DNA of 64,000 bases from Somniosus microcephalus. Its lineage: Eukaryota. This document shows positions 7,813 through 54,681 of this stretch, one piece after another. Below the pieces are notes generated by a model that saw only the letters and a program-made list of their open reading frames with translations, had not been told where the DNA came from and ran no database searches. The stretch is taken from contig CM126207.1 in NCBI GenBank assembly GCA_052327205.1, forward strand, positions 192,634,001 to 192,698,000. The letters run 5' to 3'. The position numbers and the translations under genes were made by a program. Each line of letters begins with the position of its first letter. Positions within the stretch are counted from its first letter, which is position 1.

Positions 7813-10800
7813 TGTTGCGTATGTACCTTTAAGAGAATAACTGGTCTCAGACTGCAGTATAAAAGGCGCTAGTGAGCCTCTGTTGTTTTCAGTTTCACTA
7901 TTGACTTCCATCAGTAAAGACGTGTTTTGTTCAACTCCTGCTGTCCGTGTCTCAATCATTCACGGACGTAATACTGGCGACGAGCAGATACGAACCTACC
8001 TACAGTCTGCACCACCTCCTGGGATCCATTCCTACAGCGAAGTGAGCAGAGGTCGAGGCCAGAAAGAAAAGAAAGTAAGAGGCAGTAGAAACGGGCGTCG
8101 ACCGTGGGCATCCGCCCTGTGTTGTGGAGTTGAAGATTGCTGGAGAAGCTGTCGGAAGCGGGGCCTGGTTCCTGTCGACGGTGCTTCAGCTAATCGGGCT
8201 GGTGGCAGGTAGTGCACTGATCCTTCCTGGGCTGCGGCGGTCGCGAACTCGAGCGGGTGGTTTGCAACGGGGCCGAGCAGCGTTGTCGGGAAGAGAGAGA
8301 GAGGGTGGAGCACACAGGGCGCGGCCGGTGCTACGAAGCCGGGCTGCGTATAGACCCGCGAAGAGGGAGGCAAGAGTCCCACAGGGTTGTTCCACAACGG
8401 GAAAATAATAAAAAAAAGAAATATTAAACGCGCAAGAAACCGCGAGGAGCTGCAGGTTGCAACGGGAACCACGGAAAGCAGCGCTAACAACAGCGGGGAA
8501 GAAGGCAAAGCACGGGAGGCGCCATTTTGTTAAATCGGGGAAGAAGGCAAAGCGCGGGAGGCGCCATTTTAGATTTGCAAGATGCCGAAGACTGGCTGTA
8601 TCACTGCTTTTGATAATACAATAGAGACTGGACCATGTATGTGGAAAGAGTCGAGGTATATTTCGAGGCAAACGAAATAGCGGAGGAGAAAAAGGCATCG
8701 ATATTGCTAAACTTAATGGGCGCTAGAACGTACGGCCTATTGCGGGACCTGATTACTCCAGCCAAACCGAAGGCGAAGAGTTTTAACGAAATTGTTGCTG
8801 TCCTACAGGAACACCTAAACCCTGCACCGCTGTTGATAGCAGAAAGATTTAAATTCCACAGGAGAACTCAGCATAAAGATGAGAGCAATGCTGAGTACCT
8901 TACGGAACTACACAAGCTATCAAAGCACTGCCAGTTCGGAGCAAGACTGGCAGATACCCTACGGGACAAATTTGTCTGTGGACTCCTGAGTGAAGGAACA
9001 CAGAAGAAGTTACTCTCAGAGAAAGAGCTGACGCTAGATAAGGCTTTCAGCGTGGCAGTATCGTATGAAGCAGCAGCCAGGGGAGCTGCAGAAATTCAAC
9101 AAAAACCACAGGAATACGGCACCCACGAAATGACACGGGGATTTGCAAAATGTTATCGCTGCGGCAGAACTAACCATGACCAGAAGGACTGCTGGTCCAA
9201 AGACAAAATATGCAGGCAATGCGGGAAGCTGGGACACATTGCACGAGTTTGCAGGTCTGGGAAGAAGACCAGCGACAACAAAAAGGCTACTAAGGAACCG
9301 TACAAGAAAGTACAAAAGATGACGGACAGTACTTCCGAAGACCAGATGAGCGATAGTGAATCCGGGAACAGGAGACTAAGCTGTCTCAAACTTCACAATG
9401 TAATCGCAAAAGAGGATCACCGAACCATTTGGGTCACCCTCACGATAGCAGGGTCCCAAGTTAAAATGGAATTGGATACAGGATCAGCGCTAACCGTCAT
9501 GAATCGACGAGACTACGAGCGGCTATTTTCACACATACCCTTGAGAGAGACATCCATCGTCTTGGCGACGTATACGGGGCAAAAAGTATACCCCAGAGGA
9601 AAAATAAGGGTGCCTGTCGAATACAACGGCAAGAAAATACGGAAATTGTATCTCTACATACTGCCAAATGGTGGACCACCGTTATTGGGACGGGAATGGA
9701 TCAGGAAGATAAACTTAAATTGGCACTCCATTCATGCAATGACGGTGGACGGTAAAAAAGATGAAGACGTCACTCCTGGACGATTGTCAACAATCTTAGC
9801 TAACGCCAAGGAGGTATTTCAACAAGAACTGGGCATGCTTAAAGGCGTAACCGCCTCAATAAAAATTGAAGAGAATGCAGTTCCCAAGTTTTTCAAAGCA
9901 AGACCGGTACCATATGCAATTCGCCCAGCCGTCGAGGCAGAGCTGGAGAATCTGGAGAAGGCAGGCGTGTTGTCTAAGGTCGACTGGAGCGAGTGGGCGA
10001 CACCCATCGTTCCTGTCATGAAGAAAACGTTAAGCAATAAGTCCGGGGAGCCAAGGAAGATTCGCATCTGTGGGGATTTCAAGGTGACGGTGAACCCAGT
10101 CCTTCACACAGTACAATATCCTCTTCCAAGGATAGAAGACATCTTCGCCTCACTGTCTGGAGGGAAGCGTTTTACAAAAATTGACCTAGCACAAGCATAT
10201 TTGCAGATGGAGGTTGAAGAGTCCTTTAGGAAGTATCTCACGATAAACACTCACAAAGGTCTTTACCAGTATCATCGATTGGTATTCGGAGTAGCATCGG
10301 CTCCGGCGATATGGCAAAGAGCGATGGAACAAGTCCTGCAAGGGATTCCGGGGACTCAGTGTTACTTGGACGACATCCTTGTGACAGGTGAAGATGACAG
10401 TGAACACCTTAACAACCTAGAACAGGTGCTCACTAGACTACGGGAACATGGGCTGCGAGCCAACCGCCCCAAGTGCGAATTTTTTAAGAAACAGATATCG
10501 TATTGTGGCCACGTGATTGATGAAGAGGGGTTACATAAGTCCCCTGACAAAATTGAAGCGGTTGTTAAGGCCCCAGCGCCTGAAAATGTGTCGCAACTGA
10601 GGTCATTCCTCGGATTGGTGAATTACTACCATAAGTTTTGGCCGAATTTGTCAACAATCCTGCACCCACTGAACGCCCTGCTACGAACGGGGGTAGCATG
10701 GAAATGGAGCGATGATTGTAAGCGGGCCTTTCAGAAGAGTAAGGACTTAATCACGTCAAGGGAAGTATTGGCTCACTACAACCCAGCACTGCCGATCAGA

Positions 10801-12832
10801 CTGGCGTGTGATGCATCTCCCTACGGCATTGGGGCGGTACTGTCACATAAATTCCTTGATGGGTTAGAGAGGCTGATAGCTTTTGCGTCACGGTCGTTAA
10901 CTTCTGCCGAGAGTAACTACGCCCAGATTGACAGAGGCCCTCAGCCTAGTGTGGGGGGGGGGGCGGGGGGGAAGAAGTTCAATCACTACCTGCACGGTCA
11001 AAAATTTACTCTACTAACCGATCATCAACCTCGTCTCCATTTTCAACCCTCAGAAGGGCATACCGATAATGACAGCACAACGGCTGCAGAGGTGGTCCCT
11101 TTTCCTAGGGGCACACCAATATGACATCGAGTACATAGGAACTAAACAGCATGGAAATGCTGATGGATTGTCACGCCTACCGTTGCCGACGGTGGAAGAA
11201 GACGACCTTGCAGTGGATCCAATGGAGTTATTCCACTCGACCATAGTCGAATGTCTCCCTGTGACGAATGCAAACATAGAAAAGGAAACACGGAATGACC
11301 CGACACTATCACGGATCTATGATTTAACGGTGAAGGGATGGCCAGCACATGGCGAAACACTGCTGCCAGCATTCTCGCCGAGAAGAGAACAGCTGTCAGT
11401 GTGCAGCGGAACCTTGATGTGTGGATCCAGAGTAGTAATGCCACCTAAGTTGACGGATAGAGTGCTCAATGAGCTTCATGAGGGTCATCTGGGTGGGGTA
11501 AAAATGAAGAACTTAGCCAGAGCGTTTGTGGGGTGGCCGGGAATCGATAGAGAAATCGAAGAGATGACCAAGAGCTGTGCAGGATGCCACAAGGTCCAAA
11601 ACGCCCCACCACAAGCTCCTCTGCATCCATGGGAGTGGCCCTCATCTCCATGGCAAAGGGTGCACATTGATTTTGCTGGTCCCTTCATGGACTCGATGTT
11701 TTTAATTGCGGTGGATGCACAAAGTGGCCAGAGGTAATAAAAATGTCCTCAACCACCACGGAAAAAACTATCACAGTTTTACGAACCATATTCACCAGGA
11801 ATGGGCTGCCTGAACAGATTTGCTCTGACAATGGACCACAGTTTGTGTCTGAAGAGTTCCGGAGGTTCTTAAAGAACAATGGTGTTAAGCATTACACATC
11901 TGCCCCATATCATCCAGCCACTAATGGATTGGCCGAGAGGTTTGTCCAAACATTCAAGGCGGCTATCAAGGAAATGTGTAATGAAGATATACCCCTACAA
12001 CACAAGGTGGACAACTTCTTGTTTGCCTACCGGAATGCAACACATGCGGTTACCAACCAAACTCCAGCCATGATGTTCTTCAATCGAAGACTACGATGCC
12101 GCTTGGATTTGGTTAAGCCAAACGTCCGAAGAGATGTGGAGAACAGGCAGTTTCAGAATATGATGAAAGGCCGACCAGGAGTTTTAAGATAGGTCAACCA
12201 GTTTTGGCCCGGGACTACCGCACTGAGAAATGGCAGCCAGGAACGATTTGTACACGACAAGGACCTCTCATGTATACCGTGGACGTTGGGGAGAGCATTG
12301 TAAGACGCCATGCTGACCAGATTCTAGAGTCACTGGAAAACGTCAACTCCACACCACGATCTGATACACCTGGTAATGAAATCGACGTTCCAATTGCAGC
12401 TACCGCAGAACCGGTAATATTGGAAGCAGATGAACCAAACAACGACATTGATCCCGACTCAACATTGCCAGAAGAACCTGATACCCCAAAGAGGCGTTAT
12501 CCAGACAGAATCAGGAAGCCTCCTCAAAGACTGAACTTATAATTGCTTAAACTTAACCAATGTATCTAGCAACCGTAATTGTGATTGTAATTAGTTATCA
12601 TTTAGTTGTTAAATGAATGTTATGTACTGTTCATCTAAAAGGGGAGGAATTGTTGTGTATGTACCTTTAAGAGAATAACTGGTCTCAGACTGCAGTACCG
12701 GCAGTGACCACCCCTGTATAAAAGGCGCTAGTGAGCCACTGTTGTTTTCAGTTTCACTATTGACTTCCATCAGTAAAGACGTGTTTTGTTCAACTCCTGC
12801 TGTCCGTGTCTCAATCATTCACGGACGTAATA
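7813..12832 (+). mobile_element. Full-length Gypsy LTR retrotransposon (Mag-like), frameshifted
   Basis: LTRs 7813-7973 and 12651-12832; 5-bp TSD TCACC; PBS TGGCGACGAG (complementary to tRNA-Ser(GCU) 3' end); PPT AAAAGGGGAGGAA. Confidence 0.95.
8582..12542 (+). pseudogene. gag-pol (2x CCHC, protease DTG, RT YLDD, RNase H, integrase) with several frameshifts
   Basis: ATG at 8582 (MPKTG...) is frameshifted into ORF 8635-11124; continues in ORFs 11069-11737, 11743-12192 and 12204-12542 (HEGHLG...CAGC, HIDFAGP, SDNGPQF, NGLAERFV). Confidence 0.93.
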
Positions 12833-15747: not shown

Positions 15748-18700
15748 TGTTAAGTATGTGTATTGTATTGAACAATTAACACAAAGACTTAAACGTATAA
15801 CTCAAACAGGTCTTTACTGGTTGGAGGTAGGGACTATACTGAATACAAGATTACTGCACAGTGCTTATATACCGGTGTGTTCACCCCCGGTATTACGTCT
15901 ACAGCAGCCCGAGAAAGTAGTACATCTCTTAAGGTGGAACAGGCTTAAGCTCTCTTAAGGTGGAACAGGTTACATACACAACACTCCTCCCTTCTTAGCT
16001 TTATAGTCATCCCCCCATTTAACATAACGTAATAACATATATACATATATAACTTCATGTTTAACGTAACATATCACAGATTCAGTCTCTGCGGAAAACA
16101 GTTCACAGATTCAATCTCTGTGGTGTAGTCGGTTCACGTTACTCATTCAATAGTCCTTTCATGGATTTAACAGCTTGAACTTCCGAACTGATTTGGCTCC
16201 GTTCGGAGGGACCACGTGTGTGATCTGGTAGAGGTGATAATGGTTCAGATGGGTCACCTTCTGTTTTTACTTTTCCTTTTCTGCTTCTTGGAGACTCTCT
16301 GGGCTCCATTGTCAGCTGCCACAGCTGCCAGCTGCATGCGCAGTTCCTCCTTCTCTTCCTCCTGTTTCCGTCGTAGAGCCAGCTTCTCCCGATGTTCCGT
16401 AGACTTTTGGTGCTCCTCCATGATTTCTGCACTTTGGGAGTCGAAGTTACAAGCTGGGCAGGACAGGACATCGTAATATTCGGTGTCGTCCACCAGGTCA
16501 TAGTAATATTCGGTGTCGTCCTGAGCTAGACCAGTGAGAGGGTCGTCTATTTCCTCCATACCCAGCTGGACGTTAGCCAGCTCTTGTTCCAAATCCAGAC
16601 ATCTTTCCTGAAGAGACTTCTTCATGTGTACCTCTGCATCCAGCTTTTTCTGGGCTTTCAGCAAGTCGTTTACTAGTGACCTCATTTGTGATTTTAATAC
16701 TTCAACTTCCTTTGGAGATTGATTGGTCGGACTATGCAATCCCTCTACCGGAGCAGCTGTTTCAGCGGTCTGTTGTTCTACATTGACGTGAGTCAGCGTA
16801 CTTTTGGCATCCAATGGCTGCTCTGTTGCAGTCGTTTCAGTCTGTGTCGTCACATCAGCCATCTCAATGACTTTTGAGAGCTCCGAACCCTTTCCCTTTG
16901 AAGATCGCAGCTCGTGTTCAAGTTTTTCCCATTTCAGAGTCTTGTCCCTCAGCATATGAAGGAGTTGGCTGACCGTTAACTCTTCTGACACCAGATTATG
17001 GCACGCACCTTCAGAACCTGAATCAGCTTTGATTCGTTCGGCCTCCTCGCGCAGATGGTTGGTGTGCTCCTGCTCCATTTTCTCCATCAGTTGTTTCTGT
17101 TGCCTTTCCAGATTCTCCCACTCTGTAACAAAGAACTTTTTTATTTCATTCATCTCTTGCTCAAAACGGCGAATCATTTGTTCTAATTGCTGTTGTAGTT
17201 TGAAATGGAGTTGAGTTCGAGCCCAGTGGCCCTCAAAAATGTGCATATCAGTAGACTTGACAGACTCAGAATTCTCTGTTAAACTATGTTGTTGTTGCTC
17301 AGTGGAATTCTGTGCTGAAACTTTGTCTTTTGCACATGGGTTGGTCTTACCATCATCAGTTCTAGAGTCTGGGCTGATTATCTGCACCGAGTTCTCACTC
17401 TTTATGGCTTTTAGCGAGTGCCAGTCCATATTTATGTTTCTAAACCACTCCCGGCCTAGTAGTGGTGGACCTCCCTCTGGTAGCACATATAAGTCCATTA
17501 TTTGACTTCCTTCGCCCTTGTTGGCCACTGCAACCTTTATTGTCCCGATGGGGTACACTCTCTGCCCCGTGTAGGTTGTCAATATAATCTCCGTATCCTG
17601 TAGGGGAATATGTTGGAATAACCTTCTGTAATCTTTCTTATTCATGACCGACAATGCCGATCCAGTGTCCAATTCCATTTTTACTTGGACTCCTTCTATC
17701 TGAAGAGTAACCCAAATTGTCTGGAGGTCTGCACCCTTACCAACGTTGAGTACCCTTAAGCTAGCCAGTTCAATACTGCTTAAGCCAGCCTGTTCATTAC
17801 TGCTAGCGTCTGAATCGGACTCCTGTTCGGCCACCTTGTGTACCTTTGCGTATTTCCCTTGCGGTGACTTCTTGTTGCTGGTCTTCTTCCCTGACCTGCA
17901 TACTCTAGCTATATGTCCAAGCTTACCACATGTTCTGCATGCTTGGTTTTTAAACCAACACTGGTTCTGATCATGCGTTGTCTTTCCACAACGATAACAT
18001 TTAACAGAACTCACACCCAATTTGTGTGCACTGAGCTCCGGTGACCGTAGCTGCATTACTGCCGTGCCTCTCGCTGCGGCTTCGTGTGCTGCTGCCATAG
18101 TGACCGCCTTCTCAAGCGTCAGCTCATTCTCCTCGAGCAGTCGCTTTTGTGTATCCTGTTTAAATAAACCACACACAAATTTGTCTCATAGTGCATCTGT
18201 CAGTCCCGTTCCAAACTGGCAATATTTCGCTAATTTACGCAATTCCAGCAAATATTCAGCATTGCTTTCATGCTGTAGCTGCCTTCTGTCGTAAAATTTA
18301 AATCGTTCCGCTAGCATCAGCGGCGTGGGGTTTAGATGATCTTTCAGGACAGTGACAATCTCATCGAACGTCTTATCCGCCGGTTCATCTGGTGATAACA
18401 GGTGTTTCAATTGCCCGTATGTCTTCGCACCCATTAAATTTAATAATGTTAGTGCTTTATCAGCCTCACGAATTTTATTGGCCTTACAATAATTTTTAAC
18501 TCGTTCAACATATATGGCCCAATCTTCGATGTCACTATCAAAGTTGCTAATATTCCCGTGTTTAGGCATTGTAGTACTTTATCAGATTTGCAATTTCTCA
18601 GATTTTTTTTTTTTACTGCTATCCAAGATGGCGGCTTCCCGCTCTTGCCGTCGTCCTCCGCCCACAAAATGGCGGTTTTCCCGCGCTTGGCGGTCTTCAC

Positions 18701-19385
18701 CCGTCCCCCGACGCCGTCTCCCTTCAGCCCCGAGTGCGGCCCTTATCTCCGCCGCGATCGATGGCCCGCGCTTTTCACCGCGGCTCTCGCGCCTTCATTG
18801 TCTGCCGACGCTGCGCCTTTCAGCCCGAGTGCGGCCCTTATCAGGGATTTCGATCGATGGCCCGGCTGCGCCTCGCACTTGAAAGCGGCCCGGCCCTTAT
18901 CAGTGCTTGCGATCGATGGCCCGGCTGCGCCCCTCACTTCAAAGCGGCCCGGCCCTTATCTGCCGATCGCTATCGCCCTGTACCTCTCTCTTCCCCAGTC
19001 CTGTCTTCTACTCCGGTTCACAAGCTGATGGAGGCTTCAGGGTCCTAATGCCTGTCGCTTCCAGTGGGGTGGTGAGTGGTGAGGTTTGAAACCTCTCTTC
19101 AACCGCCGTGGAATAACTGCCGCAGGGTAAGAACCTGACTCGTCGCCAGTGTTAAGTATGTGTATTGTATTGAACAATTAACACAAAGACTTAAACGTAT
19201 AACTCAAACAGGTCTTTACTGGTTGGAGGTAGGGACTATACTGAATACAAGATTACTGCACAGTGCTTATATACCGGTGTGTTCACCCCCGGTATTACGT
19301 CTACAGCAGCCCGAGAAAGTAGTACATCTCTTAAGGTGGAACAGGCTTAAGCTCTCTTAAGGTGGAACAGGTTACATACACAACA
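15748..19385 (-). mobile_element. Non-autonomous chimeric LTR retrotransposon, copy A (Gag-PR-captured host domains, no RT/RH/IN)
   Basis: 236-bp LTRs at 15748-15983 and 19150-19385 with no difference seen; 5-bp TSD GTTGT; PBS TGGCGACGAG; PPT AAGAAGGGAGGAG. Confidence 0.95.
16254..18569 (-). pseudogene. Gag-protease-coiled coil-C2H2 fusion, copy A; one nonsense codon (CGA>TGA at 18186-18188)
   Basis: ORFs 18569-18186 and 18176-16254 are in the same frame and colinear with the intact 741-aa ORF at 22307-24532. Confidence 0.9.
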
Positions 19386-20926: not shown

Positions 20927-21483
20927 TTGTAATGTAGAAAACACAGTAGCCAATTTACCTCAGTTTAACATCTCATCTGAAAGACAGCACGTCCCACAGT
21001 GCAGCACTCCCTCAGTACCAAAATCTGTGTATGTGAACCCCCAGGCATCTCTATTCCTGAACATCCTTTAAAATTATACCATTTAGTTTATATTACCTCT
21101 CCTCATTCTTCCTCCCAAATGAAGTTCACTATTGTGTATGGTCACTGTCTTTGACGTACTGCAATTAAGTTCCAGGCTAACATGTCATCCAGTGCTTACA
21201 GCAGAGGAGAGGTTTGAATATGTTGAGCCAAATGTGCCTCAGACTCTTGTATCTTTTCTCTCCTCAAGGTGCTGACCCTTGCTGGATGTGGTTCTATTGT
21301 GGCCATGCGTGAGCTTAGGACAGATGAGCAAATCCTTTCCCATTGGAGCATCACATCCATGCCTGATTCTATGCTCACCTGCTGTCTACACATGTATTTT
21401 CCAGCGGGTTGTGTTCAGGAGAGGAAATGCTGGCTGACCTTCTCCTCCCTAGCTGACAGGGTACTGAGCCCAATTATACTACC

Positions 21484-24400
21484 TGTTGTGTATGTAATAT
21501 GTGTGCTACTTTGAACCTATGGACAGGACTGCACTACTTGTTGGGCGTAGTGATACGCAGTACCACTCCTGGCCATAGGGGTATAAATAGTACTGTGGGT
21601 ACTGATTCCCCTCAGTTCCCGCCTGTGGGCATGAAGTAAAGACCTATGTATAGTCCCTACCTCCAACCAGTAAAGACCTGTTTGAGTTATACATTTAAGT
21701 CTTTGTGTTAATTGTTCAATACAATACACATACTTAACACTGGCGACGAGTCAGGCTCTTACCCTGCGGCAGTTATTCCAGGCGGCTTCGTCCAAAGACA
21801 GGACGTTGAAGAGAGGTTTCAATCCTCAACACCCCACTCAAAACTGAAGGGCAGCAGAAATCCTGACAGCTTCCAGCGACTGGAAGTGACAGGCATTAGG
21901 ACCCTGAAGCCTCCATCAGCTTGTGAACCGGAGTAAAGACAGGACTGGGGAAGAGAGAGAGGTAGGGCGATAGCGATCGGCAGATAAGGGCCGGGCCGCT
22001 TTGAAGTGAGGGGCGCAGCCGGGCCAGCGATCGGGACCAAAGATAAAAGCCGCACTCGGACTGAAAGGCGCGGCGGCTGCAGAAGCTCAAGGTGCGAGAG
22101 TCGCGGTGCACAGCGCGGGCTATCGATCGCGGCGAAGATAAGGGCCGCACTCGAGGGCTGAAGGGAGACGGCGTCGGGGGACGGGTGAAGACCGCCAAGC
22201 GCGGGAAAACCGCCATTTTGTGGGCGGAGGACGACGGCAAGAGCGGGAAGCCGCCATCTTTGATAACAAGTAAAGAAAATAAAATCTGAGAAATTGCAAA
22301 TCTACAATGCCTAAACACGGGAATATTAGCACCTTTGATAGTGACCTCGAAGATTGGGCCATATATGTTGAAAGAGTAAAAAATTATTGTAAGGCCAATA
22401 AAATTCGTGACCAAGATAAAGCTCTAACATTATTAAATTTAATGGGTGCGAAGACGTACGGGCAATTGAAACACCTGTTATCACCAGATGAACCGGCGGA
22501 TAAGACGTTCGATGAGATTGTTACTGTCCTGAAAGATCATCTAAACCCCACGCCGCTGATGCTAGCGGAACGATTTAAATTTTACGACAGAAGGCAGCTA
22601 CAGCATGAAAGCAATGCTGAATATTTGCTGGAATTGCGTAAATTAGCGAAATATTGCCAGTTTGGAACGGGATTGACAGATGCACTACGAGACAAATTTG
22701 TGTGTGGTTTATTTAAACAGGATACACAAAAGCGACTGCTCGAGGAGAATGAGCTGACGCTTGAGAAGGCGGTCACTATGGCAGCAGCACACGAAGCCGC
22801 AGCGAGAGGCACGGCAGTAATGCAGCTACGGTCACCGGAGCTCAGTGCACACAAATTGGGTGTGAGTTCTGGCAAATGTTATCGTTGTGGAAAGACAACG
22901 CATGATCAGAACCAGTGTTGGTTTAAAAACCAAGAATGTAGAACTTGTGGTAGGCTTGGACATATAGCTAGAGTATGCAGGTCAGGGAAGAAGACCAGCA
23001 GCAAGAAGTCACCGCAAGGAAAATACGCAAAGGTACACAAGGTGACCGAACAGGAGTCCGATTCAGACGCTAGCAGTAATGAACTTGCTAGCTTAAGCTG
23101 TAATGAACTGGCTAGCTTAAGAGTACTCAACGCTGGTAAGGGTGCAGACCTCCAGACAATTTGGGTCACTCTTCAGATAGAAGGAGTCCAAGTAAAACTG
23201 GAATTGGACACTGGATCGGCATTGACGGTCATAAATAAGAAAGATTACGGAAAGTTATTCCAACATATTCCCCTACAGGATACGGGGATTATATTGAAAA
23301 CATACACGGGGCAAAGAGTGTACCCCATCGGGAAAATAGAGGTTGCAGTGGCCCACAAGGGCGAAGACAGTCAAATAATGGACTTATATGTGATATCTGA
23401 AGGAGGTCCTCCACTACTAGGACGGGAGTGGATTAGGAAAATGAATATGGACTGGCATTTCCTACAAACAATAACGAGTGAGAACTCGGTGAAGATAGTC
23501 GGCCCAGACTCTGGAACGGATGATGGTAAGCCCAACTCAGGTGCAAAAGACAAAGTTTCAGCACAGAATTCCACTGAGCAACAACAACATAGTTTAACTG
23601 TGGATTCTGAGTCTGGCAAGTCTACTGATGTGCCCATTTCTGAGGGACACCGGGCTCGAACTCAACTCCATTTCAAACTACAACAGCAATTAGAACAAAT
23701 GCTTCGCCGTTTTGAGCAAGAGTTGAATGCAACGAAAGAGTTCTTTGATATAGAGTTGGAGAATCTGGAAAGACAACAGAAGCAGCTGATGGAGAAAATG
23801 GAGCAGGAGCACACAAAACGTCTGATGTCAGAGGAGTTAACGGTCAGCCAACTCCTGCATATGCTGAAGGACAGGACTCTGAAATGGGAAAAACTTGAAC
23901 ATGAACTTCAATATTCAAACGAAAGGGGTTCGGAGCTCTCAAAGGTTATTGGAAGAGCTGAGGTGGCAACACAGACTGAGATGACTGCAACAGAGCAGCC
24001 CTTGGATGCCAAAAGTACGCTGACTCACGTCAACGTAGAACAACAGACCGCTGAAACAGCTGCTCCGGTAGAGGGATTGCATAGTCCGATCAATCAATCT
24101 CCAAAGGAAGTTGAAGTATTAAAATCACAAATGAGGTCACTAGTAAACGACTTGCTGAAAGCCCAGAAAAAGCTGGATGCAGAGGTACACATGAAGAAGT
24201 CTCTTCAGGAAAGATGTCTGGATTTGGAACAAGAGCTGGCTAACGTCCAGCTAGGTATGGAGGAAATAGACGACCCTCTCACTGGTCTAGCTCAGGACGA
24301 CACCGAATATTACGATGTCCTGTCCTGCCCAGCTTGTAACTTCGACTCCCAAAGTGCAGAAATCATGGAGGAGCACCAAAAGTCTACGGAACATCGGGAG

Positions 24401-25105
24401 AAGCTGGCTCTACGACGGAAACAGGAGGAAGAGAAGGAGGAACTGCGCATGCAGCTGGCAGCTGTGGCAGCTGACAATGGAGCCCAGAGAGTCTCCAAGA
24501 AGCAGAAAAGGAAAAGTAAAAACAGAAGATGACCCATCTGAACCATTATCACCTCTACCAGATCACACACGTGGTCCCTCCGAACGGAGCCAATTCAGTT
24601 CGGAAGTTCAAACTGTTAAATCCATGGAAGGACTATTGAATGAGTCACTCTAGCAACGTGAACCGACTACACCACAGAGATTGAATCTGTGAACTGTTTT
24701 CCGCAGAGACTGAATCTGTGATCTGTTTTTGACATGAAGTTATCTATGTATCTATGTTATTCTGTTATGTAAACCTGAAGTTATATATGTATATATGTTA
24801 TTACGTTATGTTAAATGGGGAGATGACTGTAAAGCTAGGAAGGGAGGAATGTTGTGTATGTAATATGTGTGCTACTTTGAACCTATGGACAGGACTGCAC
24901 TACTTGTTGGGCGTAGTGATACGCAGTACCACTCCTGGCCATAGGGGTATAAATAGTACTGTGGGTACTGATTCCCCTCAGTTCCCGCCTGTGGGCATGA
25001 AGTAAAGACCTATGTATAGTCCCTACCTCCAACCAGTAAAGACCTGTTTGAGTTATACATTTAAGTCTTTGTGTTAATTGTTCAATACAATACACATACT
25101 TAACA
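21484..25105 (+). mobile_element. Non-autonomous chimeric LTR retrotransposon, copy B (intact ORF)
   Basis: 256-bp LTRs at 21484-21739 and 24850-25105 with no difference seen; 5-bp TSD CTACC; PBS TGGCGACGAG; PPT AGGAAGGGAGGAA. Confidence 0.96.
22307..24532 (+). CDS. 741-aa Gag (2x CCHC)-aspartic protease (LDTG)-STK10/SLK-like coiled coil-optineurin-like coiled coil-DNAJC21-like C2H2 zinc finger fusion
   Basis: Uninterrupted ORF; N-terminal ~385 aa closely resemble Gag-PR of the 7813-12832 element; C-terminal half has no pol motifs; host-gene similarities recognised from memory. Confidence 0.9.
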
Positions 25106-26834
25106 CTACCCTGTACCCCACTGCTGCCTGGGATGAGACCAGCTGAGAAGAGATTGTTGTTGTAACCTGAGACCGACTGTTCTGAGTGGACCAGTACTCT
25201 GCCCCCAAGCCATTTGGGGGAGCATCCAGACCAGCATGCACCTGTTTCTCCTGCCTCCCCAGCAGAGCCTTGACCTTGATGGTGAACTCCTGACTGCTTC
25301 CTCTGGCTACAAAACTCTACTGGGCTCCCGGAAAAAACACGTTCACACAGTTTGCAGCCATGAGAAGAGACTGTCTCCACCGGTCCTCTTAGGTTGTTCC
25401 AGTCAAGTCTGTGTTGTAACAAAGCTACTTGTATGTAGCAGTACATCCCGTGGGCTCAGCATCTATCATAAAACTCAATAATATTCAACAACCTGAATGA
25501 ATGAGAAATTCTGATTTACACTCAGGTACGATGAGTGCCACACTATGCAACTACCTCTTATCTTGGCACAGAAATACAATTGTCCACGTTCAGTTGTTCA
25601 ACAATTTGTTTTTTTGATTTCACTGACTGTTGTGTACTGTACCATTCAATAACAGAGAGTTTTGTACTAGGTTGGCCTTGATAATATGACACATTTCTTT
25701 CTGGCAAGGATTTTGGCTGGATAAATGAGGGACTTTTTGAGTATTTGTGAAAGGTATAATGTCAGATTGGAGGACGAATGGAGTATCACTTGGGCTCCTG
25801 TTGTTTCTAATCTACATTTAATGACTTTGGTATTGAAACCAAGTGTCACTTTGCCGATGACACTAAACTAGGGAAAGCAGCAGAGACAGAGAGTGCAGTT
25901 AAAGAAAAGCAGAAGGATTTAGATGGGCAACGTCATTTGGCAAACAAACGCTAAAATGCAATCTGACATTGATAAATATAAAGTGCTATGCACCCGTCGA
26001 AAAATATTGAGCATCAATGAATGGGCATGAGAGACTTAGAAAGAGACCTGGGAATGAGATGAGATGAATCATTTTCAATGTCTGGGCAATGTGGCTTAGC
26101 AATTTAATAAAAGTAAACTGAATGCTGCAATACATAAACAACAACACCAAAAACTTGCATTTACACCGCATCTGTATCCAAGTGAAATGTCCCAAGGTGC
26201 TTCACAGGAGCGTTATTGGGCAAAATTTGACACCAAGCCAAAGAAGGAGACATGAGGGCAGGTGAGCAAAAGCTTGGTTTTAAGGTGTCTTAAAGGAGGA
26301 AAGAGAGGTGGAGAAACAAAGCGGTTTGGGGAAGAAATTCTTGAGCTTAGAGCTTACATGGCTGAAGGCATGACCACCAATGGTGGAGCAAAGGGGATCG
26401 ACAGAAAAGTGGAGCACAAATCTCCAGAAGTTATGCTAACTTTTACCATGAAGTGCTCCATTCTGGTCACTGCTACGATTTGGGCAAACTCTCGATACTT
26501 TTACTGTGCCCATTGTAAAAGTCAGCTTCCATGGATGAGCCCGTGTTCGCTGTGAACTGAAATGTGATATTATGCGTGAAGTTATCTGAAATAGAGTGCC
26601 CCGTATATCTTTGGCTACAAATCACACGTCAGGTTTTATTAAAAAATAAAATTAGCTGGGGCAAAAGTCAAATGACAGCAGAAGCATAAATCACAGTGTA
26701 TCACTTACAGAATCGATCAGAGGGAAAGGGTGAGAAAATTGGCAAAATGGTGTGCTGTTGGCTAGTGTCCAATAATAGTCACTAGCCATATGTGGCTAAT
26801 TCTTTCTTGATCATAGGCAATTGCCTATTAAAAG

Positions 26835-29179: not shown

Positions 29180-29350
29180 CTCCCCCAATATTGGACTGGT
29201 AGCTATTGGTTGCATCATGACCAGCAGGGGGCAGGGTCCGGAACGTATGACATCTGGGATCGATGTGGGAGACGTTGAGAACGTGTTTACATCACGAAGC
29301 CGCACGTTATAAAAGGGCGGAGAGGCTGCGGTTGCCACTACAAGATGGCG
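29180..29350 (+). promoter_or_regulatory. Likely GLG1 proximal promoter / CpG-rich 5' region
   Basis: CCAAT/ATTGG boxes (~29185-29210), CCGGAA ETS-like site (~29238), TATAAAA followed by GGGCGG (~29308-29320), YY1-type CAAGATGGCG overlapping the ATG. Confidence 0.6.
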
Positions 29351-29803
29351 GTGTGTGGACGTGGGAACTCAGTGCTGGCGGCGGGGGGCCGGCGGTGGCC
29401 GCGGGCCTCGCATTGTCTGCTGGCGGCTGTCCTCACTTTACTCCTCCCGAGCCTCCGCGCTGTGGCTCTGACAGACCGCAGTCGCCCTCGGGAATCGGTC
29501 GTCTTGGGTCACCGAAACCAGCAGCAGGAGATGGAGGCGGGCGCCCAGGCCCAGTTCCAGGGCCCGGTTCAAGCTCAGCCGCAGGGCCCGGTTCAGGTTC
29601 AGCCCCGTCCTCCGTTCCAGGCTCAGCCCCAGGCTCAGTTCCCGGGCCAGCCCCGTCCTCCGGGCCAGTTCCAGGCCCCGCGGAAGAACATCTGGCGGAT
29701 TTCGGAGGATCCGATGTGTCACGAAGACGTGGCCCGGCTCTGCCCCAAACACACCTGGCAGAACAACTTCGCGGTGCTCGAGTGTCTACAGGACGTGCGG
29801 GAG
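29345..29803 (+). CDS. GLG1: Golgi glycoprotein 1 (ESL-1/MG-160/CFR) exon 1
   Basis: MAVCGR start, hydrophobic signal peptide, Q/P-rich linker, then WRISEDPMCHEDVARLCPKHTWQNNFAVLECLQDVRE matching remembered GLG1 (WKLAEEESCREDVTRVCPKHTWSNNLAVLECLQDVRE); phase-0 donor GAG|GTAAG at 29803/29804. Confidence 0.95.
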
Positions 29804-30439
29804 GTAAGCGGCGGCCTCGGGAGGGCGGGCTGGCCTGGACAGAGCAGTTCAATAAGCCCCGCACCTGGCGTTTGTTGGTAGAGGCGTTCACTGGCTGTTG
29901 ATCCTTGCTCCTGAGTGGGCAGAATGGGGGGAGTGGCCTGGCGATCGGTCTCAGCTTCTGGGCGGTTTGGACTGGTTGCTGGACACTGTTCCTGGGGCAG
30001 AATGGGGATCAGACTGGCTGACAGGCACTGCTCCTGAGTGGGTAGTGAAGCATCAGGCTTTGCTGTTGATCACTGCTCCTTGTTGTGGTGGGTGGGGGTC
30101 CTTTAGGCTGCCCTGAGCGGGGCGGGGGAATTGTCTGCCTGCTGATTGCCTCCAGAGTCGGCAGTTGGCCTGACTCCCGAGTGAACAGGAGTCGTGTTGC
30201 TGTGAAGAATACGTGGGGCGTGACAGCTGCTGGTCACTACTGCAGGTCAGAAGGTCTGCCCAGCACTTGAGGACTTTTTAGAGTCTGTCTTTGTCCTCCT
30301 GAGGTTTTGCAGTTTAAAGTATAGCCACGTGTAACTGGGACTCTTGGTTGGGGCAACCAGCCAAATAAAATTCAGCTACTCAGCCCAAGCCGCCTTGTTA
30401 ATATCCATGGCAATGGTTACCAATATGGTGTAACCCTTG

Positions 30440-50354: not shown

Positions 50355-53300
50355 TGATGGGCCTTCAATAACCACAAAACTAGAAGTTATAGACTTAAAC
50401 AAGTTGGCTTTTAATCACTAAGATCAGAGCTAACATCTCAACACGCCGACTGGTTCACAGGAATGAGTCATACAGATCCTGGGATCTTTATGTCGGAGAA
50501 GTCAGGGGCGGAGCCAAGAGCCAAGACCTGGAACCTCCCAGGTTAGTCGGGAAAGAGGAAGTGAAACTATACACAGTGGGGGAGGGTAATATACATGAGT
50601 GCAAAACGAATACAGGATCAAGACAAACAGATTTCATTATATTCACCCCTTCTGTAGATTTAGTCCATCGGGGTGATGTTTCTTAAAAGTTGGTATAAGT
50701 GAGTCTGTCAGGAGGTTTTGCAGTTCTCCGTGATCGACGCAAAGCCGGTTGGGGTGCCTCTAGGGGAGTGGATTCTGGTTCCTCCGCTGTCCGGGCCTCC
50801 GCAGTGTCTTCCAGGTTATCTGCAGTGTCCTCCAGGTTAAAGTTGGGTATTGATACCTCTGGGCGTCCTGCCTCTTTGTAGTGTAGGTCTTCATCGGGTA
50901 GTCTCCCATCGTTATCTCCGCTCCCCGAGGGAGCGAGGTCTTTTATGGAAACAGTGTCCTCTCACCCATCAGAGTATTCGATATAGGCGTACTGAGGGTT
51001 TGCATGGAGGAGCTGTACCTTTTCCACAAGGGGGTCCGTTTTATGGCCTCTCACGTGCTTCCGCAATAGTACTGTCCCCGGAGACGTCAGCCACGCGGGT
51101 AGAGATATGCCCAAGGTGGATTTCCGGGGGAAAACGAACATCTTTTCGTGAGGGGTAGCGTTAGTGGCAGTACATAAGAGACCTTATGGAGTGGAGCACG
51201 TCTGGGAGGACTTCCTGCCAGCGGGAGGTCGGAAGGCCTTTTGACTTTAAGGCTAACGTGACAGCCTTCCAAACAGTAGCATTCTCCCTTTCCACTTGCC
51301 CATTACCCCGGGGGTTGTAGCTAGTGGTTCTGCTAGTGGCTATCCCCTTCGAGAGCAAGAACTGGCGCAGCTCGTCACTCATGAATGACGTCCCCCTATC
51401 GCTGTGTATGTAGTTCGGCATGCCAAACATGCAGAATAGATTACAGAGACACTTAATGACCGTGGCACTGGTCATGTCTGGGCAGGGGATGGCGAAGGGG
51501 AAGCGGGAATATTCATCGATGATATTGAGGAAGTATACGTTATGGTCGGCAGAGGGAAGGGGTCCCTTGAAGTCCAGACTTAGGCGCTTGAATGGCCGTG
51601 TGGCTTTGATAAGGTGTGCACGGTCAGGCCTGTAGAAACGAGGCTTGCATTCCGCACAGATGCGGCAGGCTCTGGTCATTGCCCTGACCTCCTCGATGGA
51701 GTGGGGCAGATTGCGGGACTTTATAAAATGGTATAGTCGGGTGACCCTGGTGACACAGGTCGTTGTGGAGACCCTGTAATTTGTCCGTATGAATGCTGGC
51801 ACACATTCCCCGCGATAGGGCGTCTCTGGGTTCATTAAGGGCTCCCGGCCTGTACATAATATCATAGTCGAACGTGGATAGTTCGATCCTCCACCTGAGT
51901 ATTTTCTCATTCTTGATTTTCCCCCTTTGTTATTAAACATGAAAGCCACCGACTGCTGGTCGGTGAGCAGGGTGAAACGTTTGCCGGCTAGGTAGTGTCT
52001 CCAGTGCCGCACTGCCTCCACTATAGCCTGTGCCTCCTTCTCGACAGAAGAGTGCCTGATTTCAGGTCCCTGAAGGGTTCGGAAGAAGGCGGCCACAGGT
52101 CTCCCAGCCTGATTGAGGGTCGCAGCTAAGGCAAAGTCTGATGCATCGCTTTCGACTTGAAAGGGAATGCATTTGTCCACTGCACACACTGCAGCCCTTT
52201 CAATGTCCTGTTTAATACTGGTGAAAGCCTCCCGAGCTTCAGCTGATAGTGGGAAGGACGTCTATTTAATGAGGGGTCGGGCCTTATCGGAGTAATTGGG
52301 CACCCATTGGGCATAATACGAAAAAAATCCCAGGCACCTTTTTAAAGCTTTGGGATTGTGTGGCAGGGGCAGTTCCTTTAGGGGGCGTAATCGGTCAGGG
52401 TCCGGTCCAATTACCCCATCTTCCACCACACAGCCGAGGATACAGAGACGGGTTGTGTTGAAGACACATTTGTCTTCGTTATAGGTTAGATTCAGCTTTA
52501 GGGCAGTTTTTAAATCTCGAGATTTAGATCGTGGTCTTGCTGGTTGTGCCCGCAGATAGTGACATTGTCCAGATAGGGGTAGGTAGCTTGTAGTTTATCC
52601 TTGTCAACCATGCGGTCCCTCTCACGTTGGAAGACCGAGACCCCATTTGTTACCCCGAAGGGCACTCTGAGAAAATGGTAGAGGCGCCCGTTCGCCTTGA
52701 AGGCGGTGTATGGGCGGTCCTCCGTTCTAATGGGGAGCTGGTGATACGCGGATTTGAGGTCGATAGTCGAGAAGACTCGGTATTGCGCAATCTGGTTGAC
52801 CATTTCTGATATGCGGGGTAAAGGGTAGGCGTCCAGCTGGGTATAAATATTAACAGTCTGGCTGTAGTCAATTACCATCCGTTTCTTTTCGCTATTTTTA
52901 ACTATGACTACTTGGGCACGCCATGGGCTGGTACTGCATTCAATAATGCCTTCCCGCAAGAGTCTGTCCACTTCCGCCTTGATAAAGTGTCTGTCTTCCA
53001 GACTGTACCGTCTACTTTTGGTTGCTATGGGCCTACAGTTCGGAGCGAGATTAGCGAATAAAGAGGGCGGGCTGATTTTTAAGGTTGATAGGCCACAGAC
53101 TGTGAGTGGCGGCTGGGACCCGCCATATGCTAGCGTGACACTTTTGTGGTGGCACTGGAAGTCCAGGCCCAAGATTACATTAACAGAGTTCTGGCATCAC
53201 GAGGAGTTTAAAATCCTTGTAGTCTGTGCCTTTTACAGTCAGTGTTACCACACAGTAGCCCAAAATGTCCGAAGTGTGGGGCTTAGCAGCCATAGCAATT

Positions 53301-54681
53301 CTGTTCCGTGTAGGGGTTACCGTTAATGAGTGCCGCCGTACCAGGCTAGGGTGGATAAAACTCTCGGTACTCCCACAGTCAATTAAACATTTCGTTAAAT
53401 TCCTGTTTACCTGTATGTCCATCATGGATTTTGTCAACGGGTGTGGCCTGGATTGATCCACCGTGATCGAAGCCACTGTTGGGCCCTGGGCGGCCGTTGA
53501 GTCGGGAAAAGATGGCGGATCCCAAGATGGCGGCACGCACGAGGCGGTGACTGAGTTGGAAATCGGATTCCCCCTGCAGACTTTGCTAAAATGCCCCTTT
53601 TTCTTACATTTGAAGCATGTAGCGTCCTTCGCTGGGCATCGTTGTCTGGGGTGCTTGGCCTGGCCGCAGAAGTAGCATTTCGGGCCTCGAGACATTGCCG
53701 CTGTAGTAGGACTCCTGGGTGAACTTCTGTGTGGGGACTCCGGCGGCGTAGAGCTGGTCTGAGACCTGGATGGGGAAGATGGCTGATTCCAAGATGGCGG
53801 CCCCCTCGGCGCGCACGAGGCGGTGAGGGCCGCATGGCCGGAAGAATAAGAGTCAGAGTTTCTCTGGGCCACGTCCAGCGATTGCGCAGTGGCCACTGCC
53901 TTTTTTAAGTCCAGGACCTCCTTCTCCAGCAGTCTCGCCAGATATAATTCGATTTGAGGCCCGTGATGAAGAAATCGCAGACCAATTCGTCAGAGTACAC
54001 GTTGGCCGTCACGGCCTTGCAGTTACAGTCCCGGACCAGGTCCTTTAGGCCCTGTAAGAAATCGTCCATTGATTCCTCTGGTCGCTGCCTGCGTGTAGCC
54101 AGCAGATGTCTGGCGTACACTTCGTTTACCGGCCTCTGGTATTGGGCCTTCAGGATAGTGATGGCCTCCGTGTAAGAGGTGGCGTCCCGGATGAACGAAT
54201 AAATCCGATGACTTACGCGAGTAGTCAGTACACTCAGTTTATCTACCTCGCTAGCGGATGAGGCCCCCGCGAAGAGTTCGAAGCATTTGAGCCAGTGTCC
54301 AAATTGATTTGATGCTTCAGCAGAATGTGGATCCAAGTCCAGACGCTCTGGTTTTAGGAGTCGATCCATCCTAGTATTCTTTAGTGATTAAAATTGATGG
54401 GCCTTCAATAACCACAAAACTAGAAGTTATAGACTTAAACAAGTTGGCTTTTAATCACTAAGATCAGAGCTAACATCTCAACACGCCGACTGGTTCACAG
54501 GAATGAGTCATACAGATCCTGGGATCTTTATGTAAGAGAAGTCAGGGGCGGAGCCAAGAGCCAAGACCTGGAACCTCCCAGGTTAGTCGGGAAAGAGGAA
54601 GTGAAACTATACACAGTGGGGGAGGGTAATATACATGAGTGCAAAATGAATACAGGATCAAGACAAACAGATTTCATTACA
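50355..54681 (-). mobile_element. Full-length Gypsy LTR retrotransposon, frameshifted
   Basis: 287-bp LTRs at 50355-50641 and 54395-54681; 5-bp TSD AGACA; PPT AGAAGGGGTGAA; no tRNA-like PBS seen. Confidence 0.93.
50690..54369 (-). pseudogene. gag-pol (2x CCHC, protease IDCG, RT, RNase H, integrase) broken into several ORFs
   Basis: ORFs 54369-53905, 53896-53180, 53172-52510 and 52189-51161: IDYSQ, DLKSAYHQ, PFGVTNG, YLDN, ESDASD, TDQ, SDRG, NGQVER. Confidence 0.9.

Follow-up and report, generated by a model that had tools for sequence, protein, structure and literature searches.

A non-autonomous Ty3/Gypsy family in a shark genome with spliced host-gene pieces in place of pol and a probable circular-RNA origin of its STK10 core

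Acutely transforming retroviruses of the gag-onc type, such as MC29 and FBJ-MSV, are replication-defective and helper-dependent, and carry spliced coding sequence of the host, joined to gag, where pol would otherwise stand. The element described here, at positions 21484-25105 of a 64,000-nucleotide (nt) window of the Somniosus microcephalus genome (contig CM126207.1), is a young non-autonomous Ty3/Gypsy long terminal repeat (LTR) element with pieces of host genes in place of pol. Unlike the gag-onc viruses it is a germ-line inherited element without env, and its captured parts are without catalytic domains (kinase, J domain).

The maize LTR element Bs1 has a chimeric open reading frame (ORF) with partial exons from three host genes that are not linked to one another, and was re-copied with fixed switch points (PMC5131818, PMC7264820, PMC5408686). 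The shark family shares with it the multi-gene host exons in a chimeric ORF. However, in Bs1, with its 1-5 copies, one captured piece out of three is not in frame (PMC5131818), whereas the shark family has about 10,000 copies in a vertebrate, four donors all in the host frame, exchange between subfamilies and a back-splice junction. Another comparable group are the LTR-mediated retrocopies described by Tan et al. 2016 (PMC5131818), in which host mRNA pieces lie between LTRs with microsimilarity at the switch points. They include multi-gene chimeras, are co-transcribed in sense and often in frame, and some were re-mobilised; the mouse four-gene 'Super' retrocopy and HERV-K/FAM8A1 are among the cases. 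Unlike the shark family, these are rare loci (zebrafish 5, chicken 4, mouse 8, human 3), 14 out of 21 older ones carry loss-of-function changes, and the word 'circular' is absent from the main text of that paper. Pseudogenes of the circular RNA (circRNA) circRFWD2, with 33 copies and a non-colinear exon junction, are enriched for flanking LTR sequence, and the authors termed the mechanism 'mysterious' (Dong et al. 2016, PMC4897178). In the shark family, in contrast, the presumed circle is part of a complete LTR element whose Gag-protease frame it continues, its entry point is also its exit point, and it has thousands of descendants.

From its structural hallmarks we tentatively take the element to be a Mag-group single-ORF Ty3/Gypsy element. 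The hallmarks that it would share with this clade are a pair of CCHC knuckles, a common frame for gag and pol, a 5-bp target-site duplication and TGGCGACGAG after the LTR; the difference is that it has lost reverse transcriptase (RT), RNase H and integrase. The capture of genes by LTR elements and circRNA pseudogenes are already known, and the scale and the one-turn anatomy described below are new within the literature searched. No account of the family, or of a one-turn circRNA capture in an LTR element, was found in that search, outside of which lay most subscription papers, Repbase/Dfam and paper supplements.

Host genes represented in the tail

The only ORF encodes 741 amino acids (aa), namely Gag, protease and a tail of about 350 aa. 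An initial annotation of the window, made from the sequence, had described this intact ORF with two CCHC knuckles, an LDTG protease and a tail devoid of RT, RNase H and integrase, together with identical LTRs, a perfect target-site duplication, a primer-binding site and a polypurine tract. All of these features are present (Table 1), and the paired TG...CA LTRs with duplication, primer-binding site and polypurine tract identify an LTR retrotransposon. The Pfam scan of the ORF gave zero matches to RT, RNase H or integrase and a match to the PKK domain above the cut-off (aa 458-508, E 2.5e-8), and no env ORF was listed within the element. It is pol-less, yet has many dispersed young copies, as expected of a non-autonomous element.

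Host-gene identity was first of all apparent at the protein level. The best 120 of 520 matches to the tail (aa 387-741) were classified and comprised 18 optineurins (best 71%, E 7e-50) and 102 PKK-bearing kinases, of which the named ones were STK10 (best 78-81%). In pairwise alignments the tail is 71% identical to shark OPTN over aa 226-384, 78% to STK10 over aa 616-679 and 53%, with a gap, to STK10 over aa 400-479. The DNAJC21 domain set is present in 9 out of 9 matches to aa 652-741, 8 of them named DNAJC21, at weak E-values of 2e-3 to 0.13; a shark DNAJC21-like protein matches this piece at 43% (E 9e-5), and the corresponding piece of sister copies is 60-72% identical to DNAJC21. Searching 1.84 billion representatives by HMMER with the OPTN and DNAJC21 part returned seven matches, four optineurin-like, one DNAJC21-like and two unrelated; the latter, a bacterial coiled coil and an insect zinc-finger protein, were put down to composition. 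The closest named proteins are shark proteins.

The host genes themselves lie at C8:167.17-167.28 Mb (STK10) and C17:85.87-85.91 Mb (OPTN). Aligned to these loci, the window copy crosses three OPTN and two STK10 exon joins, which answers the exon-junction check proposed with the initial annotation for these two genes. Its four consecutive OPTN exons have no introns and 80-91% DNA identity to the host. The older copy L009 joins six OPTN exons and is 96-99% identical to the same STK10 and OPTN exons, except for one exon at 86% owing to a deletion. Since the introns are missing, the STK10 and OPTN pieces are captured spliced RNA, and capture of genomic DNA is ruled out. Non-specific coiled-coil similarity, named beforehand as the result that would speak against capture, is ruled out as well by the DNA-level identity to host exons. 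SLK, offered in the initial annotation beside STK10, is ruled out as donor by the 96-99% identity of older copies to the STK10 locus, and the STK10 PKK piece at ~23642-23823 stands with a wider extent: it begins earlier, at ~23476, and a further remnant follows the stop codon (24524-24644). The putative DNAJC21 piece is assigned by protein similarity only, the level at which the earlier claim holds; a search for one exact splice-donor pattern inside the host DNAJC21 zinc finger gave 0 matches, which is uninformative. A fourth captured gene, CGNL1, is found in other copies as 212 contiguous codons within STK10 exon 12 (L021:735-1375, L023 and L024), 91% identical to shark cingulin-like 1 over 212 aa. 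We consider host-gene capture overall to be virtually certain.

Some irregularities of the host loci were observed. The N-terminal exons of host DNAJC21 (C1:2653208-2675274) are far from the last exon (C1:4771317-4771481, C1211:24191-24355) in an order incompatible with one gene model, and the locus may be misassembled or duplicated. Host OPTN exon 6 (C17:85885346-85885539) has one extra base compared to the element copies, which disrupts the frame of the shark reference protein and is either an assembly error or a frameshifted allele. There is also a separate processed STK10 retrocopy at C3:354658271-354658948, an intron-less 3' end covering aa 753-977 with five exons at 98-100% identity.

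Permuted STK10 exons and a probable circular template

The STK10 exons of the elements occur in a permuted order, namely the 3' part of exon 9, exons 11, 12 and 8, and the 5' part of exon 9. Matches were confined to exons 8, 9, 11 and 12 when the window copy, L009 and L021-L024 were mapped to the host locus, and exon 10 is missing in all 10 copies read. Exon 12 runs to its final base and is followed immediately by the first base of exon 8 in L021, L022 and L024, which is a back-splice junction, and L023 has the same BLAST borders; a genome-wide count of this junction gave 1,140 matches (control 0). The ends of exons 7 and 12 have only AG in common. Entry into and exit from STK10 overlap on host bases 167197008-167196995, about 11-14 bases of exon 9 around TATTGGATGAG. 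The entry point is present in 7 out of 10 copies, having been deleted later in the other three, and the exit point in all 10. Exons 8-12 add up to 1,242 nt, a multiple of 3, and are stop-free over two turns; each is single-copy in the 120-kb host locus. The sequence past the exit resembles the integrase tail of gag-pol relatives (RRYP motif). The window copy itself has lost the back-splice junction and kept the permuted exon order.

The exact exon 12-exon 8 join, together with entry and exit at the same bases, indicates that the founder most likely copied one turn of a circle of exons 8-12, which we regard as clearly probable from the genomic copies. The evidence points strongly to a first step in which the RT of a single-ORF gag-pol element would have left its template close to the integrase tail for a circular RNA packaged alongside, copied one complete turn over the back-splice junction and rejoined the element just past the protease. 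RT, RNase H and integrase would thereby have been swapped for a circle of 414 open codons that keeps the frame on either side. The exit after one turn may have been forced by RNase H removal of the starting template; GATGAG-like element words at both switch points could equally have set it.

Several points weigh against this reading. The circle is read from genomic copies; element RNA carries the exon 12-exon 8 junction too, so that host-type reads need telling apart. No inverted repeats were found between STK10 introns 7 and 12. Neither the pre-capture parent nor the autonomous helper was found among the gag-pol relatives compared, and three of these relatives have the primer-binding-site motif in common and ~65% DNA identity in gag-protease, with no LTR match. 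Moreover, linear STK10 RNA would yield the identical join through trans-splicing, a lost tandem duplication of exons 8-12 or an RT jump between two STK10 mRNAs, and the GATGAG-like words could alone place entry and exit together. However, today's STK10 locus has each of exons 8-12 only once, the STK10 copy is exactly one unit long, and an RT jump would have to fall precisely on two splice boundaries that have only AG in common. We consider a linear template improbable.

The later steps can be followed in the junctions that the copies share. An exon 9-to-11 deletion became fixed early, OPTN, DNAJC21 and CGNL1 RNA pieces were switched in afterwards at short shared words, and subfamilies probably recombined. 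The joins do sit on such words, e.g. GAGG, CAAAGCTGA and GCAGAGG at the STK10/OPTN joins, and no poly(A) tail or hallmark of long interspersed elements (LINEs) was found inside. OPTN took the place of the stretch with the back-splice junction, CGNL1 was inserted in exon 12 and DNAJC21 in exon 8. In the window type, OPTN exon 8 is linked to the border between STK10 exon 8 and DNAJC21, and for this reason this type looks like a recombinant, with the 5' half of an OPTN-bearing subfamily, the 3' half of a DNAJC21-bearing one and the back-splice junction lost. Of the serial capture of spliced mRNAs put forward initially, the spliced RNA and the template switching on shared words are thus retained; three linear mRNAs entering one lineage are not, as STK10 came first, most likely from circular RNA, and CGNL1 belongs to another subfamily.

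The long OPTN piece of L009 (L009:1722-2600) has six exons, 909 bases as the element reads them, starting ~8 bases into exon 3 and ending ~4 bases before the end of exon 8 (host C17:85879049-85890333). OPTN may also derive from a circle.

Table 1. Features of the element and of related elements in the window
Feature	Position	Strand	Evidence
Target-site duplication CTACC, left copy	21479..21483	+	same 5 bp as right copy
5' LTR, 256 nt, TG...CA ends, TATAAA at 21582	21484..21739	+	100% identical to 3' LTR
Primer-binding-site-like TGGCGACGAG, one base after 5' LTR	21741..21750	+	motif also after LTR of gag-pol relatives
Sole ORF, 741 aa, Gag-protease-captured host tail	22307..24532	+	ORF listing
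Two CCHC zinc knuckles, aa 191-204 and 211-224	22877..22978	+	sequence; PF00098 below curated cut-off
Aspartyl protease, LDTG at aa 300-303	23165..23449	+	PF13975/PF00077 below curated cut-off; similarity to gag-pol relative
3' portion of STK10 coding exon 9 with 69 nt deleted in frame; predicted to be disordered	23476..23646	+	86-88% DNA identity to host exon
STK10 exons 11 and 12, join at 23729, PKK coiled coil	23642..23823	+	91-94% DNA identity; Pfam
OPTN coding exons 5-8, intron-less, shark OPTN aa 226-384, 21-nt net in-frame deletion	23816..24267	+	80-91% DNA identity
Putative DNAJC21 piece: jaz-type C2H2 zinc finger C674/C677/H690/H696, helix, basic SKKQKRK tail	24273..24523	+	protein match; borders approximate
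STK10 exon 8 end and exon 9 start, join 24551/24552, mostly untranslated; ends at exon 9 exit point	24524..24644	+	host-locus alignment
Polypurine tract	24837..24849	+	sequence
3' LTR, 256 nt	24850..25105	+	100% identical to 5' LTR
Target-site duplication CTACC, right copy	25106..25110	+	same 5 bp as left copy
Broken single-ORF gag-pol Gypsy relative, order RVT_1-RNase H-integrase	8617..12192	+	Pfam
Second family member, stop in gag, 236-nt identical LTRs, different U3, duplication ACAAC	15748..19385	-	sequence

Family size, transcription and selection on the tail

The family is non-autonomous, recently mobile and transcribed. Counting patterns on the 6.45-Gb genome, with reversed-pattern controls at 0, we obtained 4,278 matches to the window-type STK10-OPTN join (up to 1 mismatch) and 10,415 to the STK10 exon 9-11 join (up to 2 mismatches), which is present in all 10 copies read. 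A DNA search gave 431 candidates, and the 40 that were scored are all 100% identical to the window element over 1,065 nt. Eight young copies that were fetched are 99.0-99.9% identical over ~3.1 kb with different 3' flanks in each case; seven are colinear, stop-free and 2-3 bases off the window ORF, and the remaining one has a deletion. These numbers answer the question of genomic copies and bear out the earlier description of a still-mobile family. An assembly artefact is ruled out by the thousands of dispersed copies and by reads in other samples, and a domesticated single-copy gene by the identity and count of the copies.

Three older builds were found, STK10 with long OPTN (L009-L012), STK10 with DNAJC21 (L022) and STK10 with CGNL1 and DNAJC21 (L021, L023, L024). 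The second member in the window (15748-19385) has a longer STK10/OPTN join and a 30-nt duplication in its DNAJC21 piece. Its LTRs share only the last 92 bases with those of the window element, as after a U3 exchange between subfamilies.

Near-identical DNA is present in sequencing runs under several organism labels, and two DNA-type contig sets with two further labels cover 30 out of 30 and 21 out of 30 element bins. In two RNA runs 10,364 of 16.65 M and 10,478 of 14.40 M reads match at a minimum of 95% identity, with 30 out of 30 bins covered. Both RNA runs belong to one study whose species label may not be the species of the window. First mates of run X22 are mostly on the minus strand, as sense RNA gives in most stranded libraries, and X23 lacks such a strong strand bias. 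GT..AG ends were found on none of the 15 RNA-read joints listed out of 16. Besides, some reads point to further transcribed variants: beyond 23457 some continue in a protease linker of greater length, others depart at 24219 to different sequence, and 23789-24253 is absent from 16 reads, a variant without the OPTN piece.

To assess constraint we used the ratio of non-synonymous to synonymous substitution rates (dN/dS). Between the window copy and L009 it is 0.16 for Gag, 0.07 for the knuckles and 0.31 for the protease. The captured STK10 and OPTN sequence compared to the host has a dN/dS of 0.41-0.59 (p 0.002-0.046, kappa 1-3, 258 codons), and of 0.43-0.60 at 241 codons for which three or more out of four older copies match the host; helical exons have 0.32-0.48 versus 0.58-0.77 for linkers. 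All seven joins and the net indels within the window ORF preserve the host frame. The per-segment dN/dS proposed at the outset is below 1 for STK10 and OPTN; the DNAJC21 piece shows no constraint (see below). Purifying selection on the captured coiled coils is modest and borderline in significance; the tail is probably translated and weakly constrained, and we lean towards some selection acting on it.

Against this stand several observations, some of which also fit a neutral passenger of the same origin, where only Gag-protease and the cis signals count. With CpG codons excluded, dN/dS rises to 0.49-0.70 and p to 0.02-0.24, and the polarised test at kappa 3 gives p 0.058. The DNAJC21 module has a dN/dS of 1.5-2.2 versus L022, which is not significant and shows no constraint. 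Because chance alone puts 44-83% of the words that these coding sequences share in frame, the in-frame joins are weaker evidence than 1 in 3 would imply, and the DNAJC21-to-STK10 3' join is out of frame in the window lineage. The eight older copies were picked as top protein matches, a selection that favours intact frames. If the tail were a neutral passenger, young copies would be too recent to be broken, microhomology switches would tend to keep the frame, and the long ORF would shorten the 3' untranslated region and stabilise the RNA; the free swapping or loss of modules (OPTN, CGNL1 or neither) would also be expected. However, a divergence of 6-20% separates the window lineage from the exons of the host, with zero stops in ~350 captured codons, the helical exons are more constrained than the linkers, and the untranslated STK10 remnant has 9 non-synonymous and 2 synonymous changes over 34 codons, a small sample without significance. 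We consider a neutral tail rather unlikely.

A specific function of the tail is also doubtful. A single-sequence AlphaFold2 model predicts long helices between disordered linkers (predicted template modelling score, pTM, 0.29). Sequence searches of the PDB gave 0 matches with the tail and only weak zinc-knuckle matches with Gag-protease, and the single ESM Atlas match (0.80) was treated as a lead only. The tail might be an evolved module for Gag-protease dimerisation, for LC8/dynein recruitment via ATQTE or for targeting through its basic end, with adaptive swapping. Four out of four donors contributed long helical segments, and ATQTE, which we take to be an LC8 motif, is retained in the window copy and L009-L012. 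Furthermore, all four ligands of the zinc finger are retained although, within 27 residues, there are now 3 basic residues instead of 7 and 6 acidic residues instead of 3, and the most derived type makes up ~41% of the counted copies (4,278 of 10,415, from patterns with different mismatch limits). On the other hand, STK10 is the only module common to all subfamilies, the TQT motif is missing from the CGNL1 and STK10+DNAJC21 types because these have no OPTN, and the dN/dS excess of the zinc finger is not significant and in part due to one 4-codon block. An evolved module is for these reasons a possible but not a favoured reading.

The initial annotation had suggested a decoy against OPTN-mediated autophagy or TBK1 signalling. 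The OPTN piece is genuine, with its 71% identity to shark optineurin, and OPTN oligomerises (PMC5962687), so that pairing of host OPTN with a captured coiled coil is conceivable. DSFVEIR, presumably the LC3-interacting region (LIR) of OPTN, is still present in older OPTN subfamilies. The window type has lost it, its OPTN piece beginning past DSFVEIR. In shark OPTN the NEMO-type coiled coil lies at 44-111, UBAN at 497-590 and the zinc finger at 641-666, and the N-terminal coil that binds TBK1 in human OPTN is at 26-119 (PMC5027247). The TBK1-binding coil, UBAN and zinc finger occur in none of the copies read. The decoy reading fails because the TBK1-, LC3- and ubiquitin-binding parts are missing from the window piece; OPTN-less subfamilies have spread as well, and we regard a decoy as very unlikely.

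We return to capture of a circle, later addition of further pieces and a tolerated coiled-coil tail, an explanation to which, as a whole, we give a probability of about 0.72. In its last step the element would keep its own Gag-protease under strong selection and depend on an autonomous relative for RT and integrase. The tail would be translated together with Gag, and modest selection would preserve its open frame and its helices. It would most likely be a soluble coiled-coil appendage that is tolerated in the place of Pol, and not a mimic of one host pathway. A tentative extension is that the tail of this family, founded by one-turn circRNA capture, is a selected, exchangeable part of the Gag polyprotein, and that ~10,000 transcribed copies make a host-like chimera acting in particle assembly or transport.

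Relatives, neighbouring sequence and consequences

The gag-pol relative at 8617-12192 is 56% identical to the element over Gag-protease and has the same primer-binding-site motif; the Ty3/Gypsy pol order of protease, RT, RNase H and integrase was seen only through this relative. LTR-like repeats lie around it at ~7813-7973 and ~12651-12832, and two further gag-pol relatives are located in STK10 introns. In L024 a 318-codon open frame with an RQRR site and no Pfam match follows the element ORF (L024:2299-3252), which we take to resemble a viral envelope-type glycoprotein. About 4 kb downstream of the window element, a GC-rich open frame on the plus strand (29279-29881), also without a Pfam match, presumably resembles the first coding exon of Golgi glycoprotein 1. 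Protease and knuckle matches are present at 53180-53989, and the translations show 205-64000 to be otherwise dense in LINE-like, Penelope-like and other Gypsy fragments.

The family preserves an apparent route of circRNA into the genome, the template switch of an LTR element onto a circle, which Dong et al. 2016 (PMC4897178) had left open. It represents exon shuffling by LTR elements at about three orders of magnitude above the scale of Bs1, and its thousands of copies permit a real test of selection on captured host sequence for the benefit of an element. At ~3.6-4.5 kb each, 10,415 copies would have added tens of megabases to the 6.45-Gb genome. In sharks that carry the family, ~10,000 copies resembling STK10, OPTN, DNAJC21 and CGNL1 will confound annotation, mapping and expression estimates.

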